Below are positions 5,951-51,358 of a DNA stretch of 64,000 nt, one piece after another; the stretch's first letter is position 1; each line of letters starts with the position of its first letter. The notes beneath the pieces are model-generated. The model saw only the letters and a list, made by a program, of their open reading frames with translations. It searched no databases and was not told the DNA's origin. The stretch is taken from the NCBI GenBank assembly GCA_964016885.1, contig OZ024740.1:227106001-227170000 (forward strand). Reading direction: 5' to 3'. Origin of the DNA: Eledone cirrhosa (lineage: Eukaryota). A program made the position numbers and the translations under genes.

Positions 5951-6008
5951 ATACTATGATCATTTCAATGACCGGGTTCCGTATGAATCCGGTGATATCA
6001 TCAGGTAT
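5951..6008 (-). ncRNA. Minimal type I hammerhead ribozyme
   Basis: Minus strand: ATAC-CTGATGA-tatcACCGGattc-ATACG-gaacCCGGTcatt-GAAA-TGATCA-TA-GTAT. Intact core boxes, stem I ATAC/GTAT, palindromic ATGATCAT in stem III, UA cleavage site. Confidence 0.75.
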
Positions 6009-6365
6009 TCAAAATATAATAAGTGAATGTAATAGATAAAATCCATGGGGCTGAAAATCAAAGACCCAAGGGCGACCGCCATCCAGCATCTTCTACCTTT
6101 GCCGGTCGCCCTATATATATATATATATATAGGTGTATGTGTGTGTGTGTACATAATTTATTTCATTAGAAAATGTGCTTGTCCTATGGAAGTAATTTCC
6201 ATCTGGAATACAATATGTAACCCATCTACTTAATGTATTGAGTACCTTATTTAACTGTAGTCTCTTTCTTTTCCTCTTTCTCTCTCTCTCTCATATATAT
6301 ATCCATATATAAATCTCCATTTATATATATATATATAAATGTAAATATATATATATCTCCATATA

Positions 6366-17972: not shown

Positions 17973-18133
17973 ATAGACATTAAACGTTGATGATGATGAT
18001 GATGTATGTATATATATATATATATATATCTATATATATATATGTTAATTCAAAATATTAATAAATATAGACATTAAACGTTGATGATGATGATGATGAT
18101 GTATGTATATATATATATATGTGCATCTAACTA

Positions 18134-18215
<82 letters not shown>

Positions 18216-18250
18216 AATTCAAAATATTAATAAATATAGACATTGAACGT
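17973..18250 (+). repeat. Tandem duplication of a retroposon-tail/(GAT)n/(TA)n junction
   Basis: ATAGACATTAAACGTTGATGAT...TATGTTAATTCAAAATATTAATAAAT occurs twice, plus the start of a third unit. Confidence 0.8.
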
Positions 18251-18257
18251 AATCAAA

Positions 18258-18329
18258 ATATATTTTATTATATATATTTCGGAGGTACTGTGCTGTTTTT
18301 TCAGTACGTCCTCATCAGATAAAATATAT
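18258..18329 (-). ncRNA. Minimal type I hammerhead ribozyme (family 1)
   Basis: Minus strand: ATATATTTTAT-CTGATGA-GGACGTACTG-AAAAAACAGCA-CAGTACCTCC-GAAA-TATATA-TA-ATAAAATATAT. 11-bp stem I, stem II, palindromic AUAUAUAU stem III, UA cleavage site. Confidence 0.85.
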
Positions 18330-18349
18330 AAATTGATGTGTGACATACC

Positions 18350-18414
18350 TCAACTGTGCTGATGGTTCAATTCCAGTCCTGCCAAGACTGGAATTGAACC
18401 ATCAGCACAGTTGA
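18350..18414. repeat. Perfect 29-bp hairpin within the ribozyme-bearing element
   Basis: TCAACTGTGCTGATGGTTCAATTCCAGTC / GACTGGAATTGAACCATCAGCACAGTTGA with a 7-nt loop. Confidence 0.9.
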
Positions 18415-18515
18415 TTAATATTAATAACTCCAGAAAACTTTTACTGTTGAGTGCTTCTAATCTATTGTAAAACTATATTCATTGATTAATCAATGAACCT
18501 TGTTTAACTTTTGGT

Positions 18516-18572
<57 letters not shown>

Positions 18573-18655
18573 CTATATATATATATATATATATGTATAT
18601 GTATATATATATATGTATATATATATATATGTATATGTAAATATTTATGTATATA

Positions 18656-18730
<75 letters not shown>

Positions 18731-18765
18731 CTGATGATTTCTAAAGAATGAAACAGTTCTAGTCC
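18731..18765 (+). ncRNA. Hammerhead core lacking its 5' stem I strand (remnant)
   Basis: CTGATGA-TTTC-TAAA-GAAT-GAAA-CAGTTC-TA-GTCC directly after a (TA)n array; a degenerate paralog lies at about 20443-20482. Confidence 0.45.
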
Positions 18766-18879
18766 TGTAGAATCTCATCTATATTAAAACTTTTATACTC
18801 TACAATGTATTGAGTACCTTACTTACTGTGGTTACCTTCGATTCAACCCGGAATAACGTATATATATATATATATATAT

Positions 18880-19408: not shown

Positions 19409-19474
19409 TCTATAAATATATATATATATATACAATATATTAATAAATGGAAACTATATTTATAAAACCATAAT

Positions 19475-19540
19475 TATTTTATTATATATATTTCAAGGGC
19501 GACCAAGGTAAATTATGGTGTGCTTTCATCAGATAAAATA
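19475..19540 (-). ncRNA. Minimal type I hammerhead ribozyme (family 1, left arm)
   Basis: Minus strand: TATTTTAT-CTGATGA-AAGCACACCA-TAATTTACCT-TGGTCGCCCTT-GAAA-TATATA-TA-ATAAAATA. Confidence 0.8.
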
Positions 19541-19647
19541 CAGATTTGTTTTATAAATAAATATTGACATACTGGAAAAAAGAGAACCTCAACCGTTGAG
19601 GATGTCTTTTTTCCAGTATGTCAATATTTATTTATAAAACAAATCTG

Positions 19648-19713
19648 TATTTTATCTGATGAAAGCGCACCATAATTTACCTTGGTCGCCCTTGAAATAT
19701 ATATAATAAAATA
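19648..19713 (+). ncRNA. Minimal type I hammerhead ribozyme (family 1, right arm)
   Basis: Plus strand: TATTTTAT-CTGATGA-AAGCGCACCA-TAATTTACCT-TGGTCGCCCTT-GAAA-TATATA-TA-ATAAAATA. Confidence 0.8.
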
Positions 19714-19847
19714 ATTATGGTTTTATAAATATAGTTTCCATTTATTAATATATTGTATATTTACTCCACTAAACTGTTGAGTGCTTTATATCAGTTATAA
19801 AAATGTTTAAGCTTGTTGAATCTCAACAAATTAAATATAACCTCTGC

Positions 19848-19910
<63 letters not shown>

Positions 19911-20325: not shown

Positions 20326-20356
<31 letters not shown>

Positions 20357-20952
20357 AGGTACACAAATTGTGTCTGGAGTAACCACAGTTAGTAAAGGTA
20401 CTCAATATGTTGGTAGTAGAGTATAGGCATCTTTATTATATATGATGATTTCATATGAATAAAGCAGTTCTAATCCTGTAGAAGTTATTTATATATATAA
20501 TATATATATATACTTATATGTGCCAGCATGTAAATCAGATATAAAACGAGGAGGAGGATTGTGATTTGTTGAAAATTCAACTGATAGAAAGTTCTCGAGT
20601 TAGATGTGATCTTTATACAGTATTTAAGAATTACAGATGCTATTTAGGTTCCATGCTAAATTGGCTGGTAATGTTCTTTAAAATAAATAACACATCCTCA
20701 CTGTTGATCTATAATCTTAAGGCAGATTCAAAATATACACCCATTTAAGACATGTGGAAACACAGCTCTAACTTCCTTTTTTCGCAGTTGTGTCATGTCA
20801 TTTAGATTGTATTTTATGGGGAAAAGCAGATATATGCTAGTGAATAAGGTTTCTCTCAAATGGAAGAAGTTATCTAATATTAAAGGCTTACTAAATTGTG
20901 TAAGAACGCTTAATATATTTCTATAAAATGCTTCTATGTATTGCAATTTTGT

Positions 20953-24619: not shown

Positions 24620-25230
24620 ATATCATCCCTATGCCTTGTCATTTTATTGTCTCATCTACCCTTCCAGCTAGTAGAATGGTTTACATTTTTTTAAAAGATA
24701 GAAGTACTTGTTTATTATATAATTTATGTATATTTTTTACCTGCAAAGTCTTGAGCAAGGTTCAATTCTAGTTAAAGTTAAGTATTCTATATTGTTGCTT
24801 CTTTTCTTTTCTATCATCTATATATCCTCATCATCATCAAAAGTTGGACGGGTCTACATAGAACAAGTCAGTTCTGAAGCAAGACTACTGACTTCCCAGA
24901 CAGGCCAAGGGGTCTGTATCCCCCTAACAAAAGGTCATATTGAGGGCAGAGGAGACGTTCTTATGTCTTTTGACCTATCTGTTTCAATATCTTTATATCT
25001 CATCAGTAGAGCTCAAAATTAATTAGATTTACAATATATTATTAGTGAATTTAAGTTATAGTTATGTATATAAACCATATATGTGCAGGAAAGATATAAC
25101 AAAAAAGGAAGGGAACAGCAATGTCTTTGCCTGCCAATCTGTTGGCATACTAAAGCTTAACAGGATTTAAATGTTCTTACTGTAATTCACATTAAACAAT
25201 ATATAAATGTTTCTACATTACTGACCAACA

Positions 25231-41718: not shown

Positions 41719-44700
41719 ATCCACACACACAAACACACTCACACACATATATATACACCCATATATACATACACATACACATACACCCACACACATACAT
41801 ATATATATACACATACATCCACACACACAAACACACTCACACACATACATATACACCGATATATACATACACATACACCCACACACATACATATATATAT
41901 ATATACACACATACATCCACACACTGAAACACACTCACACACATACATATACACCCATATATACATACACATACACCCACACACATACATATATATATAC
42001 ACACATACATCCACACACTCAAACACACTCACATACATACATATACACCCATATATACATACACATACACCCACACACATACATATATATATATACATAC
42101 ATACATCCACACACTCAAACACACTCACACATATACATATACACCCATATATACATGCACATACACCCACACACATACATATATATATATATGCCCTAGA
42201 TAGGAGTAACTATAGAGGCTTAAATTAATCGACTAGGTCATGAAGGTCACGGAAAAAGTAATAGCGCAACTAATCAGAGAGAGAATTGATCTAGATGAAA
42301 TGCAGTTCGGTTTTGTGTCAGGCAAAAGTGCCACAGACGCTCTTTTCATTGTACGACAACTACAGGAGAAGTACCTAGCTAAAAGTAAACCCCTATACTT
42401 AGCTTTTGTTGACTTGGAGAAAGTCTTTGACAGAGTCCCCCGTTCCATTATCTGGTGGGCTCTTAGAAAACTAGGTGTTGACGAATGGCTTGTGAGAGCT
42501 ATACAAGCCATGTAGAAAGAAACAGTCAGCAAGGTTAGAATTAACAACGAATATAGTGAAGAGTTTAGTGTAAAAGTTGGTGTTCATCAGGGCTCTGTTC
42601 TTAGCCCCCTACTATTTATTATTGCCCTTCAGGCTATAACAGTGGAGTTCAAGACCGGCTGCCCATGGGAACTCCTATACGCAGATGATCTAACGCTCAT
42701 AGCTGAATCAATGGCTGAGCTAGAGAAGAAATTCCAAACATGGAAGCACGGCCTAGAATCAAAAGGCCATAAAATTAACCTGGCTAAGACTAAAGTTCTA
42801 GTTTGTAGGAAAGAAAATAAGGCGCCGGTCCCTTCCGGGAAATGGCCATGCTCAGTGTGTAGGAAAGGCGTAGGTAGAAACTCCATTTTATGTCCCAAAT
42901 GCAAAATATGGGTGCATAAAAGATGTAGTGGGATCACAGGTAAGCTAACTAAGAACATAGATTTTACATGTGGCCGGTGCTCTGGTGCAATAAGTAGCAG
43001 CAAGTGCCCACAAAATACTAGCTCTTTCAATTGCGCAGAGGGTTCTATAGAAATTGTGGACAGCTTCCGTTACCTGGGTGACAAAATCAGCAGTGGGGGA
43101 GGGTGCTCTGAAAGTACAGTAGCTAGAGTCAGAACTGGATGGAAAAAGTTCAGAGAGCTTATACCACTATTAGCTGCTAAAGGGTTCTCCCTAAAAATGA
43201 AAGGCAGGTTGTATGATGCCTGCATACGAACAGCAATGTTGCATGGCAGTGAGACCTGGGCATTGTGTGCAGAGGATATACGCAGACTAGAGAGGAACAA
43301 AGCTTGCATGCTCCGCTGGATATGTAATAGTAATATACGTCAACGGCAAAGCATAAACGAACTAAGGAAAAAATTAGAAATAAGAGGGATCAGATGTTGT
43401 TTACTCGAGAGAAGGCTACGTTGGTATGGTCACGTGATGCGCATGAAAGACGACAGCTGTATAACAAAGTGCAGGGCAATAAAGATAGACGGTAGCCACG
43501 GAGTAGGCAGACCCAGAAAAACCTGGGACGAGCTGATAAATTCCGACCTCACACACTTACACCTCTCCAAGACAATGTCACTGGACCGAGACCTTTGGCG
43601 GTACTCAGTAATAGAGAAGACCCGCCTTACCTAAATACAAAGTAAAACCTACTACAGTCAGTAGGCATCTCTAACAAAATACACCCCCGTCCCACCACCC
43701 CCACCCCATCCACACCGCCCCTTTCAATGTAAAGTTATGTTGGTGCCACAAATGAGATCGTGTAGGTGTCACGACAAAAAAAACACACAGTCCACGCTGT
43801 AATGTGGCCGTGTAGGCAACACGGTAAAAACCTCCCAGCCCCACACTGTAAATGTGGTTGGTGTTAGGAAGGGCATCCAACTGTAGAAAACCCGCCAGAT
43901 AGTCCTATGCGAGCAAGACAACCACTCTTGCCTCAAGTGGGAAAACTCCCGTCCAAACCCATGCAAGCTTGGAACACGGACGTTAAACGATGATGATGAT
44001 GATGATGATGATATACACATACATCCACACACACAAACACACTCACACGCATACATATACAGCCATATATACATACACATACACCCAGACACAAACATAT
44101 ATATATATATATATATACACATACATCCACACACACAAACACACTCACACACATACATATGCACCCATATATACATACACATACATCCACACACTCAAAC
44201 ACACTCACACACATACTTCCACACACTCAAACACACTCACACACATACATATACATACACATACACCTACACACATACATATATATATACACATACATCC
44301 ACACACACAAACACACTCACACACATACATATACACCCATATATACATACACATACACCCACACACATACATATATATATACACATACATCCACACACTT
44401 AAACACACTCACACACATACATATACATACACATACACCTACACACATACATATATATATATACACATACATCCACACACTCAAACACACTCACACACAT
44501 ACATATACACCCATATATACATACACATACATCCACACACAAACATATATATATATACGCATACATCCACACACACAAACACACTCACACACATACATAT
44601 ACACCCATATATACATACACATACACCCAGACACAAACATATATATATATATATATACATACATCCACACACTCAAACACACTCACACACATACATATAT

Positions 44701-45760
44701 ATATACACATACATCCACACATTCAAACACACTCACACACATACATATACACCCATATATACATACAGATACACCTACACACATACATATATATATATAT
44801 ACATACATCCACACACACAAACACGCATACATATACACCCATATATACATACACATACACCCACACACATACATATATATATATATATATACATACATCC
44901 ACACACACACAAACACACTCACACACATACATATACACCCATATATACATACACATACATCCACACACTCAAACACACTCACACACATACATATACACCC
45001 ATATATACATACACATACATCCACACACACTCAAACACACTCACACACATACATATACCACCCATATATACATACACATACATCCACACACTCAAACACA
45101 CTCACACACATACATGTACACCCATATATACATACACATACACCCACACACATACATATATATATATATACACACATACATCCACACACACTCAAACACA
45201 CTCACACACATACATATACACCCATATATACATACACATACACCCACACACATACATATATATATATATACACACATACATCCACACACACTCAAACACA
45301 CTCACACACATACATATACACCCATATATACATACACATACACCCACACACATACATATATATATATATACACACATACATCCACACACACTCAAACACA
45401 CTCACACACATACATATACACCCATATATACATACACATACACCCACACACATACATATATATATATATACACACATACATCCACACACACACTCAAACA
45501 CACTCACACACATACATATACACCCATATATACATACACATACACCCACACACATACATATATATATATATACACACATACATCCACACACACTCAAACA
45601 CACTCACACACATACATATACACCCATATATACATACACATACACCCACACACATACATATATATATATATACACACATACATCCACACACACTCAAACA
45701 CACTCACACACATACATATACACCCATATATACATACACATACATCCACACACACATATA
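41500..45760. repeat. About 100-bp compound (CA/TA) minisatellite array interrupted by an RTE LINE
   Basis: Unit CACATACATCCACACACACTCAAACACACTCACACACATACATATACACCCATATATACATACACATACACCCACACACATACATATATAT is repeated on both sides of the LINE, with 100-bp periodicity at 45100-45720. Confidence 0.9.
42193..44012 (+). mobile_element. 5'-truncated RTE-clade LINE (RT, PHD-like finger, C-terminal domain, 3'UTR)
   Basis: NYRG, QFGF, FVDLEK.FDRV, GVHQGS.LSP, YADD, RYLG and RRLRWYGHVMR...GRPRKTW motifs. Open from 42240 to 43634 except one stop (TAG at 42513, TAT in the paralog); (GAT)n tail. Confidence 0.95.
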
Positions 45761-45984
45761 GACATAGATACACCAATGCACACACATACAGATACACAGA
45801 CACTCATGTGAAATTTATTTATTCATTTATTTTTGTATTTATGTTCAATTTACATGATGGCTATTTCTTCCAGTATTGCCAATATCCCAACTCCTACACT
45901 CACTTTCTGGAAAGTTCCATTAACTCATACATATGTTGTTTCTCACTCTGCTTGCATAGCGAGCAATGAAGTCTTATAGTAGTA

Positions 45985-46760
45985 TTGCACCACCACCACC
46001 ACCACCACCACCACCACCACCACCACCACCACCACTAACATTGTGACCACCACTACCACTGCCACCACCAACACCATCATCATTAACACTACCACTACCA
46101 CAACCTTTGGCACCACCAACACTACTACCCATTACCCCCCACCCCCCACCACCCCCCACCCCGCACTACCACCGCCACCACCGCTACCACTGCTACCACT
46201 GCCACCACCAACAACACCATAATCATTAACACCATCACTACTGCTACCACAACCTCTGGCACCACCAACCCTACTACCCATTACCATCCCCACCCCGCAC
46301 TACCACCACTACTACCACTGCCACCACCAACACCATAATCATTAACACCATCACTACCGCTACCACAACCTCTGGCACCACCTACACTACTACCCATTAC
46401 CACGTAAAACCACCACCACCACCAACACCATCATCATTAACACCATCACTACTGCTACCACAACCTCTGGCACCACCAACACTACTACCCATTACCACCC
46501 CCACCCCGCACTGCCACCACTACTACCACTGCCACCACGAACACCATAATCATTAACAACATCACTACCACTACCACAACCTCCGGCACCACCAACACTA
46601 TTACCCACTCTGCACCACCACCACTACCACTGCCACCACGAACACCATAATCATTAACAACACCACTACCACTACCACAACCTCTGGCACCAGCAACACT
46701 ACTACCCTTACCACCCCCCACCCCGCACCACCACCGCTACCACTACCACCACAAACATTA
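45985..46760. repeat. C-rich minisatellite, unit of about 100-120 bp
   Basis: CCACTGCCACCACCAACACCATAATCATTAACACCATCACTACTGCTACCACAACCTCTGGCACCACCAACACTACTACCCATTACC repeated about 6 times. Confidence 0.85.
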
Positions 46761-47069
46761 CCACCACCACCACCACAAACATTACCACTACCACAACAAC
46801 AACAAAACTTGCCATAACAACAACAACAACAAAACTTGCCATAACAACAACAACAACAGCAACAACTACGCACATTAACAACAGCAACAACACCAACAAA
46901 AATGTACAACACCAACAACACTCACAGCATCAATGATAACAAACAACAATAACAACAACAATAACAACAATAACAACAACAGCGATACGCAAACAACAAT
47001 ATCAATAACAACACTAACAACAGACAACAAAAACAAAATACGATGATGGCAACAACAACAACAACACTA

Positions 47070-48765
47070 ATAACACCAACAACACACTAATACAACACTA
47101 CATCTCCAACACCAACAACACACTAATACAACACAACAACACAACCTCTCCAACACTGACAACACACTAACACAACAACAACACTACATCTCCCACACAA
47201 CAACACACTAATAACACCAACACACTAACACAACAACAACACTACATCTCCAACACAACAACAACACTAATAACACCAACACACTAACACAACAACAACA
47301 CTACATCTCCAACACTGACAACACACTAACACAACACAACACTACATCTCCAACATCAACAACACACTAATACAACACAACAACACTAATAACACCGACA
47401 ACACACTAATACAACAACAACACTACATCTCCAACACTAACAACACACTAATACAACAACAGCACTACATCTCCAACACTGACAACACACTAATACAACA
47501 ACAGCACTACATCTCCAACACTGACAACACACTAATACAACAACACTACATCTCCAACACTAACAACACACTAATACAACAACAGCACTGCATCTCCAAC
47601 ACTAACAACACACTAATACAACAACAGCACTACATCTCCAGCACTGACAACACACTAATACAACAACAGCACTACATCTCCAACATTGACAACACATGCT
47701 AACTCAACAACAAAACTAATAACACCGACAACACACTAATACAACAACAACACTACATCTCCAACACTAACAACACACTAATACAACAACAACACTAACA
47801 ACACACTAATACAACAACATCACTACATCTCCAACACTAACAACACACTAATACAACAACAACACTAACAACACACTAATACAACAACAGCACTACATCT
47901 CCAACACTAACAACACACTAATACAACAACAACACTACATCTCCAACACTAACAACACACTAATACAACAACAGCACTACATCTCCAACATTGACAACAC
48001 ATGCTAACTCAACAACAACACTAATAACACCGACAACACACTAATACAACAACAACACTACATCTCCAACACTAACAACACACTAATACAACAACAGCAC
48101 TACATCTCCAACACTAACAACACACTAATACAACAACAGCACTACATCTCCAACACTAACAACACACTAATACAACAACAACACTACATCTCCAGCACTG
48201 ACAACACACTAATACAACAACAACACTACATCTCCAACACTGACAACACACTAATACAACAACAACACTACATCTCCAGCACTGACAACACACTAATACA
48301 ACAACAACACTACATCTCCAACACTGACAACACACTAATACAACAACAACACTACATCTCCAGCACTGACAACACACTAATACAACAACAACACTACATT
48401 TCCAACACTGACAACACACTAATACAACAACAACACTACATCTCCAGCACTGACAACACACTAATACAACAACAACACTACATCTCCAACACTGACAACA
48501 CATGCTAACTCAACAACAACAGCACTAATAACACCGACAACACAACAGCACTACATCTCCAACACTAACAACACACTAATACAACAACAGCACTACATCT
48601 CCAACACTGACAACACACTAATACAACAACAACACTACATCTCCAACACTGACAACACATGCTAACTCAACAACAACAGCACTAATAACACCGACAACAC
48701 AACAGCACTACATCTCCAACACTAACAACACACTAATACAACAACAACACTACATCTCCAACACA
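47070..48765. repeat. 42-bp minisatellite
   Basis: Unit CTACATCTCCAACACTGACAACACACTAATACAACAACAACA; gives the 14-aa CCQCWRCSVVVVLV periodicity on the minus strand. Confidence 0.9.
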
Positions 48766-49527
48766 GTTGCCACATTTATTATTATTCTTTATCAAGCTCA
48801 TCTCACCCAGATACATTCTATCTTGCTGCACACGTAGCATCGAGTGCCATGCCATACCTGCAGCATTTCTTGGATGACATGCACATCCACATGCATATTC
48901 ACACACTCACAAACAAGCTTTCCATATATACACACACAGACATATACACATACATAATCTCTATCAAACACACATACATACATACATACATGCATACTAC
49001 ACATACGGACATAAACTCACACTCTGACGCATACATTCAAAACACACACACATGACATAATGGATATAAAAACATGGATATATATATACGCAAACGCACG
49101 TATTCAGACTTGCATATTACACATGCAAACACACAGAAGTGCTTATTACATAGACATACACAAAAACACATGCATACTACAGGTAGATACACAAACATAT
49201 GGGTATATAGATACTCTAACATACATTAATATAATAGATATATCCTTATTACTTCCCAATATCACACATAGAGCCTGTGAATTGCTCATAGTAAATTTTA
49301 TATCAGAGAATATTCACGTATTGCAAAGTGATGGGCAAAAAAAACACAAAAGATGGATGAAATAAAATTAGGAACAACAGCAACAACAACAATAGCAACA
49401 ACAACAAACATCAACATAAAATATAAAAATAGCAAGGTGTAAAGTTTCATACAGGCTTAGATTGCTCCTAGGAGATTAATATATATATTATGTGTGTGTG
49501 TGTGTGTGTTTGTATATGGATATATGC

Positions 49528-49568
<41 letters not shown>

Positions 49569-50226
49569 TTGTTTTAGTCTCATTCATTCTCAACCCCACA
49601 CTCATCGACGCAGTCTCAAATCCTCTGCCTCCTTCACTGTATTTGTCACCAAAACTATGTCGTCGGCAAATTCACCATCTGATACCTTTCTCGCCTTAAC
49701 TCTGCTGCTCTGAGCCAGTGCTACGTTAAAGCCAGAGTCCTGGTGTTTCTCCAGTGCAAGGAGCATACAATAGTCCACTACGATGATAAAAAGGTAGGGA
49801 GCCAATGTATCTCCCTGGAGCACTCCAGCCAGTATCTCAAAGAACTCTGTCATCCCATCAGGTGTGATGACTTGGGCTTTGGTGTTGGTGTAGAGCAGTG
49901 ATATCAGGTCCACTATCTTCTTGGGGATTCCATAAGCCTGTAAGATCTTCATCAGGCATTGACGGTCCACAGAATCAAAGGTGACACAGAGGAGACTGAG
50001 GTTAACTGGACATGCTCACCGACATCCAGAGTTGACATTGCACTCAGTGTTCCTGTGGGAGCCCCTACATAGACACATTGGAAGAGGAAGACCAAGGTTA
50101 ACGTATGTTGATGCCCTAAGGACAGACACTGGTCTGTTGGAGACGCAGGACATGGCAGCGATAATGAGGGACAGAGACCGCTGGAGAGAACTCGTCCATG
50201 GATCTCGGGAATTTTACCCGCCCTAG
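49569..50226. mobile_element. 5'-inverted LINE (RTE-like) insertion
   Basis: 49569-49980 (-) encodes RT (FDSVDR...GVLQGDTLAPYLF...FADD...VGLRMNETKT); 49981-50226 (+) encodes the ORF2 C-terminus (RRLRLTGH...GRPRLT...DRDRW). Confidence 0.85.
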
Positions 50227-51067: not shown

Positions 51068-51071
51068 TATA

Positions 51072-51358
51072 AGCAAAAGGGATATTTAATTTGTTGGTAA
51101 TTCAACAAATATAAATATTTATAACTGATTTGAAGCACTCAACAAGTTTTCTGGAGTATAATATTCAATGATATTAAATAAATGGAAACTATATTTATAA
51201 AACCATATTTATTCTATTATATATATTTCAAGGGTACCAAAACTTTGGTACACTCTCATCAGATAAAATACAATGTTTGTTTTATAAATATTGACATATC
51301 CAGGAAGAAGATCTTAACGGTTCAAGTTAAGGAAAAACTTGAACCGTTAAGATCTTCT
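51072..51358 (-). mobile_element. Hammerhead-bearing element, family 1
   Basis: On the minus strand: 23-bp hairpin (51306-51358), ribozyme, spacer and the same tail as 19760-19848, ending in (TA)n. Confidence 0.75.
51210..51270 (-). ncRNA. Minimal type I hammerhead ribozyme (family 1)
   Basis: Minus strand: TATTTTAT-CTGATGA-GAGTGTACCA-AAGTTT-TGGTACCCTT-GAAA-TATATA-TA-ATAGAATA (G-U wobble in stem I). Confidence 0.85.

Follow-up and report, generated by a model that had tools for sequence, protein, structure and literature searches.

The element at 18211–18515 lies in a 64,000-nt window of the Eledone cirrhosa genome (contig OZ024740.1, positions 227,106,001–227,170,000, forward strand). It is flanked on both sides by (TA)n tracts, 18149–18210 on the left and a (TA)n-rich tract at 18516–18728 on the right, and encodes no ORF. 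Alignment to the terminal repeat (pLTR) of an ORF-bearing locus, L131, divides it into two arms in opposite orientation. The short, tail-less arm (18211–18378, minus strand) corresponds to +9 to +173 of the pLTR, counted from the inferred transcription start. It contains a type I hammerhead motif with stems I, II and III (18259–18328, minus strand), predicted to cleave between 18269 and 18268 (+116/+117), and a splice-donor-like GTATGT at +39 (18343–18348, minus strand) that may open a putative 5′-UTR intron. The long arm is on the plus strand and consists of two pieces. The 5′ piece (18379–18414, +2 to +37) is identical to the L131 pLTR at 36 of 36 positions, and the 3′ piece (18414–18515) runs from +166 to the long end at about +267 to +270. 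The last ~95 nt (18422–18515, plus strand) form a "tail" between two fixed 3′ ends. This tail holds two hairpins, a weak stem-loop at 18432–18458 and a palindromic 8-bp hairpin at 18478–18497, and a sequence motif at 18427–18456.

The 5′ ends of the two arms overlap from +9 to +37 and form a perfect hairpin at 18350–18414, with 29-bp arms (18350–18378 and 18386–18414), a 7-nt loop and a fold of z = −14.4 against shuffles. An earlier note, made from the letters alone, had described a hammerhead on the minus strand, a tail on the plus strand and a perfect 29-bp hairpin between them, and all three were recovered in the sequence and by a core scan. In the alignment to the L131 pLTR, the long arm lacks +38 to +165, a stretch of 128 nt that includes the sense hammerhead. 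The ribozyme appears inverted relative to the tail because the long arm lost the 128 nt holding its own hammerhead copy. The right arm of the hairpin and the tail both come from the long arm, of which they are separate pieces, and the hairpin would therefore be the remnant of a longer palindrome, likely left over after that loss. The loop bases are long-arm sequence; therefore the hairpin in its present form is not a snap-back of the short arm. In this single copy, the 128 nt may either have been skipped by the reverse transcriptase (RT) or deleted afterwards. Descent from a subfamily with a shared deletion was rejected, since look-alikes (L002–L014 and L030) differ in the start of the long arm (+135 to +166). 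Three other contig sets contain the family and many different junctions, and none of them spans this locus.

The hammerhead core matches at 18277–18318 in the core scan of the window, with the minus-strand sequence CUGAUGA..GAAA. It is predicted to fold with a 10-bp AU-rich stem I, a 9-bp stem II with a conserved C-C mismatch and a minimal palindromic stem III. The fold of the hammerhead region has z = −3.7 against shuffles, and the opposite strand is similar (z = −3.9). An Rfam scan of the whole window returned nothing at the gathering threshold, hammerhead included. The exact 43-nt core has 295 matches in the 3.0-Gb genome and a looser hammerhead pattern has 13,322 exact matches; the control patterns each gave 0.

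The three window copies that the earlier note assigned to a "family 1" represent three subfamilies, and their quoted stem II sequences were found as given. Six of the nine Watson-Crick pairs of stem II (pairs 1, 2, 3, 6, 9 and 10) changed on both sides among these subfamilies and the C-C mismatch was kept, in a comparison that allows a one-base bulge in one subfamily and represents about six events in three lineages. The claim of structure-level conservation of stem II thus holds. Because the search pattern dictates the core and inner stem I, covariation can be judged in stem II alone. Across 31 distinct hammerheads, 87% of cells are paired. The covariation that had been proposed as a check was seen in the number of cells with two-sided changes (33, compared with 10.9 for shuffles and no more than 8 for slid controls) and not in the number of pairs with such changes, where the observed 8 fell within the shuffles (49 of 500). 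With its core, three stems and stem II covariation, the motif is classed from sequence as a type I hammerhead. It resembles the minimal type I hammerheads of Penelope-like elements (PLEs) described by Cervera and De la Pena 2014 (PMC4209133) in its long stem II, tiny palindromic stem III and covarying families. Those hammerheads likewise lie mostly in truncated copies, with some opposite-strand pairs 100–700 bp apart. The motif here differs from them in a longer AU-rich stem I, in the conserved C-C mismatch and at position 10.1-11.1, which is often not G-C in two subfamilies.

By alignment, the element is the terminal repeat of a Hydra-type Penelope-like retroelement, with ORF-bearing parents present in the genome. 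An upstream sequence common to many copies leads through ~1.1 kb of non-coding DNA to broken frames for an RT and a putative C-terminal endonuclease. The RT frames contain YRDD and match Pfam RVT_1 with E = 8.4e-6 and 26.1 bits, below the curated cut-off of 29.6. Twenty-two homologs of 414–769 aa have 30–47% identity, and those of ~700 aa align over the entire ORF region. A VY..YIG..R-like motif in the C-terminal region aligns with the homologs. The family fragments gave no Pfam GIY-YIG match, and a neighbouring related element scored E = 0.018. Loci L130, L131 and L127 have the order pLTR-ORF-pLTR, with the pLTRs arising by partial tandem and the ORF beginning ~60 nt past the long end. The full order in L131 is an inverted truncated copy, a partial pLTR, the ORF, a 3′ UTR of roughly 1.1 kb and a pLTR, giving a unit of ~3.8 kb; L130 and L127 are alike. 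A fragment of a second, related Hydra-type PLE ORF (L106:162–1714, minus strand) follows immediately downstream of a family copy and is ~45% identical over the endonuclease region. Asn-rich stretches lie between the RT and endonuclease in the ORF regions of L106, L131 and L130; such stretches are known in rotifer Penelope elements (PMC3846280).

Hydra-clade motifs in the frames include SDKT and the CxCX5C linker, present as CNCRRKSEC. CxxC occurs as CNVC before E in L088, CxH occurs as CIH in L110, and no CCHH was seen by eye. The RWK position reads RWC in L131, is altered in L130 and is RWK in homologs P0002 and P0005. Insertion is into (TA)n, with TA runs after nearly all ends among those listed. 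Together with the TA targets, the motifs SDKT, CxCX5C, CxxC and CxH agree with the PMC8557442 definition of the Hydra clade, an assignment made by setting motifs and target against published clade definitions. Hydra elements in that source share the DKT, CxCX5C linker, CxxC and CxH, pLTR hammerhead and (TA)n targets with the family here, and have a C-terminal endonuclease, which is predicted for the family. They are generally <3 kb, against the ~3.8-kb unit, and have RWK where L131 has RWC. Membership in the Neptune clade was rejected because the linker is CxCX5C and not the CX2-5CxxC plus CCHH of that clade definition. A non-LTR retrozyme was also rejected, as the parent is ORF-bearing and none of the 93 loci surveyed below contains a head-to-tail array of short units. 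Animal non-LTR retrozymes (bioRxiv 10.64898/2026.07.22.740005) similarly carry a PLE-related type I hammerhead in non-coding repeats. As described there, they are defined by head-to-tail tandem units, whereas the family here is solo or inverted and part of an ORF-bearing element.

Coordinates on the pLTR were set with +1 at the point where arm 5′ ends pile up. A TATA motif lies ~30 nt upstream and TCACT spans +1, a pair also described in a rotifer pLTR (PMC3846280). RNA presumably starts at +1 from a TATA/Inr promoter of the upstream pLTR; a search of sequencing runs for the sequence listed no RNA run. GTATGT follows at +39, the hammerhead core at +67, predicted cleavage after +116 and the ORF start near +326. 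Arms terminate at two fixed 3′ ends ~95 nt apart, the first at +173 and the second at about +270, and both close in AT-alternating bases that merge into the (TA)n target. The donor-like GTATGT at +39 is accompanied by an acceptor-like TTTAG just past the long end (L131:6300–6320, minus strand). A 5′-UTR intron starting at +39 is a guess; its putative splicing would take out the hammerhead together with the two RT start sites and several upstream ATGs. One exact pattern for a spliced genomic copy, with +38 joined to the downstream acceptor, gave 0 matches.

Arms were counted at 93 loci on contigs C1–C4. These were picked by ribozyme core alone, from the first 100 of the 295 listed exact 43-nt core matches after removal of 4 second arms and 3 others; the exact core favours younger copies. 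Automated parsing found 46 short+long pairs, no short+short pairs, no long+long pairs and one pair with an interrupted arm. The remaining loci have single arms, comprising 31 solo short arms, 13 solo long arms and 2 unclassified solos. Were arm ends independent, the chance of 46 heterotypic pairs in 46 would be at most 1.4e-14. Three loci scored as solo (L072, L076 and L115) are short+long pairs by eye. In sister subfamilies, 10 of 10 pairs are short+long by eye. Two sister-subfamily insertions are in the window. One, at 19425–19850 on the plus strand, has both arms intact (short arm 19425–19597, minus; long arm 19591–19850, plus). The other, at 51070–51358 on the minus strand, has a long arm at 51070–51330 and an inverted piece of only 23 nt (51336–51358). 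A second hammerhead family has 9 short+long pairs by eye, including the window copy at 20341–20500, and 1 long+long pair; 2 more run off the locus ends. Both arms of the exception (L170:1729–1905) end at the long site, and it is the only long+long pair seen; the short+long rule is therefore not absolute.

Among arms lacking upstream sequence and beginning at +1, 21 of 42 have G at −1, against C at −1 in 53 of 55 copies that continue upstream and a local G background of 8.4%. With 5 arms excluded because their partner may have provided the G, the count is 16 of 37 (p = 1.5e-8 against 8.4%; p = 0.012 against 25%). Both arms of L093 carry the extra G. Untemplated 5′ G in L1 and SVA insertions has been ascribed to cap copying (PMC3287187). 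The extra G here points to a capped sense RNA that would be unspliced at +39 and uncut at +116.

Within one insertion the two arms carry the same variant at 281 of 298 subfamily-diagnostic sites (94%), compared with 62% (maximum 75%) in 1000 shuffles; arms are 97.0% identical within insertions and 93.5% between them. This set comprises 60 pairs, 20 of which come from a similarity-biased first search. The concordance could also stem from hairpin repair or conversion. At L131:6311–7286, the hammerhead variant of the inverted short arm is that of the 5′ pLTR and differs from that of the 3′ pLTR, 3.8 kb distant; the pattern looks like use of the upstream repeat's short site on a read-through RNA.

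These pairings and variants bear on the number of templates. Two separate RNAs, held by protein or a ribozyme dimer and each primed once on one target strand, are a distinctly unlikely source. Two independent RNAs predict homotypic pairs and mixed variants. The uniformly heterotypic pairs and the arm concordance would be unexplained unless both RNAs come from one locus and the dimer is asymmetric. Consistent with two RNAs are the predicted dimer of a PLE protein (PMC11167929), the proposal that minimal hammerheads act as dimers (PMC4209133), the single long+long pair of the second family and the match of the L131 short arm to the 5′ rather than the 3′ pLTR.

The element consists of two head-to-head pLTR copies in (TA)n, probably produced by an RT/endonuclease that copied one capped RNA from two fixed start points, one primed by each target strand. 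The RT/endonuclease would nick both target strands, with one capped, unspliced and uncut RNA as template. One target 3′-OH would prime at +270 and the other at +173. Each RT would stop independently, the outer one displacing the inner cDNA, and the two cDNA ends would be joined through short homology or small insertions. In the window copy, both cDNAs would have reached the 5′ end (+9 and +2), and +38 to +165 of the long arm would then have been skipped by the RT or later deleted. The same start sites are present in the 5′ pLTR of the mRNA, where priming would yield cDNAs of 170–270 nt extending up to the cap. With short cDNAs drawn from the mRNA's own 5′ pLTR, a separate non-autonomous master is unnecessary. 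Two-site priming of one RNA is favoured because it accounts for all the counts, with 5′-pLTR priming accounting for the short copies.

A stricter form of this mechanism is evenly balanced between right and wrong. PLE insertion would then be an obligately asymmetric double priming, in which a dimeric RT-endonuclease engages both tail ends of one RNA at once, with one site per strand and strand displacement. If true, one event would account for the inverted copy and the one-sided tail as well as for the pLTR-only stubs, which number in the thousands, and the question of sense versus antisense template, left open in PMC3846280, would be settled.

Junctions between arms were compared in the 39 pairs without upstream sequence. 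The short (inverted) arm extends >10 nt further 5′ in 18 of these, including two three-piece cases of which one is the window copy; the long arm extends further in 12, and the two are within 10 nt in 9. The 39 pairs have 37 distinct start pairs, so the junction would be made at insertion, as the earlier note had suggested from its differing position between copies. Junctions are blunt, share 2–6 nt or contain short insertions. Across the 46 pairs, the arms share no sequence in 5, where the long arm begins beyond +173. Recombination between long arms can, by reasoning, flip the spacer and blur which arm was longer.

Arm ends were mapped against the predicted cleavage site, as that note had proposed. 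They cluster at +1 to +12 (41 of 78) and not at the cleavage site, with 2 of the other 37 at +115 to +119 and 5 of 37 at +113 to +125, at most a weak excess. A pile-up of arm 5′ ends at the cleavage site was thus absent in the 39 pairs examined. In the preferred reading the hammerhead is a passenger of the pLTR, with cutting predicted only as a dimer or with protein help. A further cluster, 6 of 37 at +88 to +96, is consistent with short homology to the 5′ end.

Self-primed fold-back, put forward in the earlier note as the general origin of these junctions, is unlikely in that role. A cDNA primed at the long end would fold back and copy itself to +173, the endonuclease would resolve the product, and asymmetric copies would be later deletions. 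Self-priming on an antisense template was proposed in PMC3846280, where an unspliced sense template was left open. Fold-back would naturally yield a short arm paired with a long one, matching variants in both and a perfect palindrome where they meet, and the 21 of 39 pairs in which the long arm is longer or within 10 nt are roughly compatible with it. It requires the inverted arm to be nested in the tail-bearing arm, and the 18 inverted arms that extend further 5′ and the 5 pairs without overlap contradict this, as does the predominance of short arms among single forms. Short arms with the extra G start exactly at +1 beside truncated long arms in L052, L081 and L071, and fold-back would require deletions ending exactly at the cap. 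The same loop also occurs on either arm (window copy versus L018 and L023). Small snap-back pieces do exist, as short local snap-backs in L113 and L014. For the window copy alone, fold-back followed by deletion could also produce the structure.

A fold-back or MITE-type DNA transposon, or a self-replicating palindromic unit copied whole, is very improbable. Long inverted arms, TA flanks and many near-symmetric copies resemble such elements. The variable centres, the one-sided tail and the extra G do not, nor does the continuation into an RT-endonuclease ORF. Double priming of one RNA remains the preferred reading, with some additions. Three-piece arms like that of the window copy occur in L003, L010, L014, L025, L046, L092, L104 and L113, and suggest that snap-backs, jumps or later deletions contribute besides double priming.

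The architecture is already known as a textbook PLE insertion, and the element joins a known clade. An inverted 5′-truncated copy and a one-sided tail are established for endonuclease-bearing (EN+) PLEs (Craig et al. 2021, PMC8557442; Arkhipova et al. 2013, PMC3846280). As described in these sources, EN+ PLE insertions share with the family a pLTR with TATA and TCACT, partial tandems, Asn-rich stretches in the ORF, a head-to-head inverted copy, a tail at one end and a palindrome at the junction. The tail here is ~95 nt rather than 30–40 nt, the ORF starts downstream of the tail rather than inside the pLTR, and most sampled copies are pLTR-only, unlike the published ones. The data here speak for a capped sense template rather than the antisense self-priming put forward in 2013 (PMC3846280).

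In vitro, the Poseidon_Ac PLE protein nicks and extends both strands, begins RT at two internal positions and accepts uncleaved RNA as template (Frangieh et al. 2024, PMC11167929). The two internal start sites bounding the tail, the AT-rich target and the uncleaved RNA template are alike in both systems. The start sites here differ in lying ~95 nt apart and upstream of the ORF. The parts of PMC11167929 examined do not tie the two sites to the inverted structure and describe no one-of-each pairing.

In LINE-1 twin priming, both target strands prime and an inverted 5′ part results. In the family, unlike in twin priming, the position of the second start is fixed, and overlap between the two cDNAs is usual.

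Neither a one-short-one-long rule nor an extra G was found stated for PLEs in the literature covered. The family adds a countable record of PLE insertion, in the form of short+long pairing, arms truncated independently of each other, a fixed start marked by an extra G, and variants common to both arms. These counts tie the in vitro result of two RT start sites and extension of both strands to the long-unexplained inverted structure of PLEs, and argue against self-priming on an antisense template. The >13,000 hammerhead motifs in the genome would be mostly by-products of 5′-pLTR priming and not an independent ribozyme replicon.

Other features of the window include a 79-nt block, containing the outer end of the short arm (+140 to +173), that is duplicated to the left of the element at 18002–18080 and 18171–18249 with 95% identity. 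The duplication apparently came about because the arm and an adjacent host repeat share ~15 nt by chance. The second hammerhead family, with a related tail stem, is found at 18729–18860 (plus strand) and 20341–20500. The latter copy shares the anatomy of the element at 18211–18515: its short arm carries the ribozyme, and its long arm, in the opposite orientation, is truncated. Other families are represented by further hammerhead-like cores at 24982–25006 and about 5970–6010, both on the minus strand. A repeat search of the window was dominated by TA microsatellites, and 44000–50000 is a strongly strand-skewed low-complexity tract with a GC skew of about −0.85.
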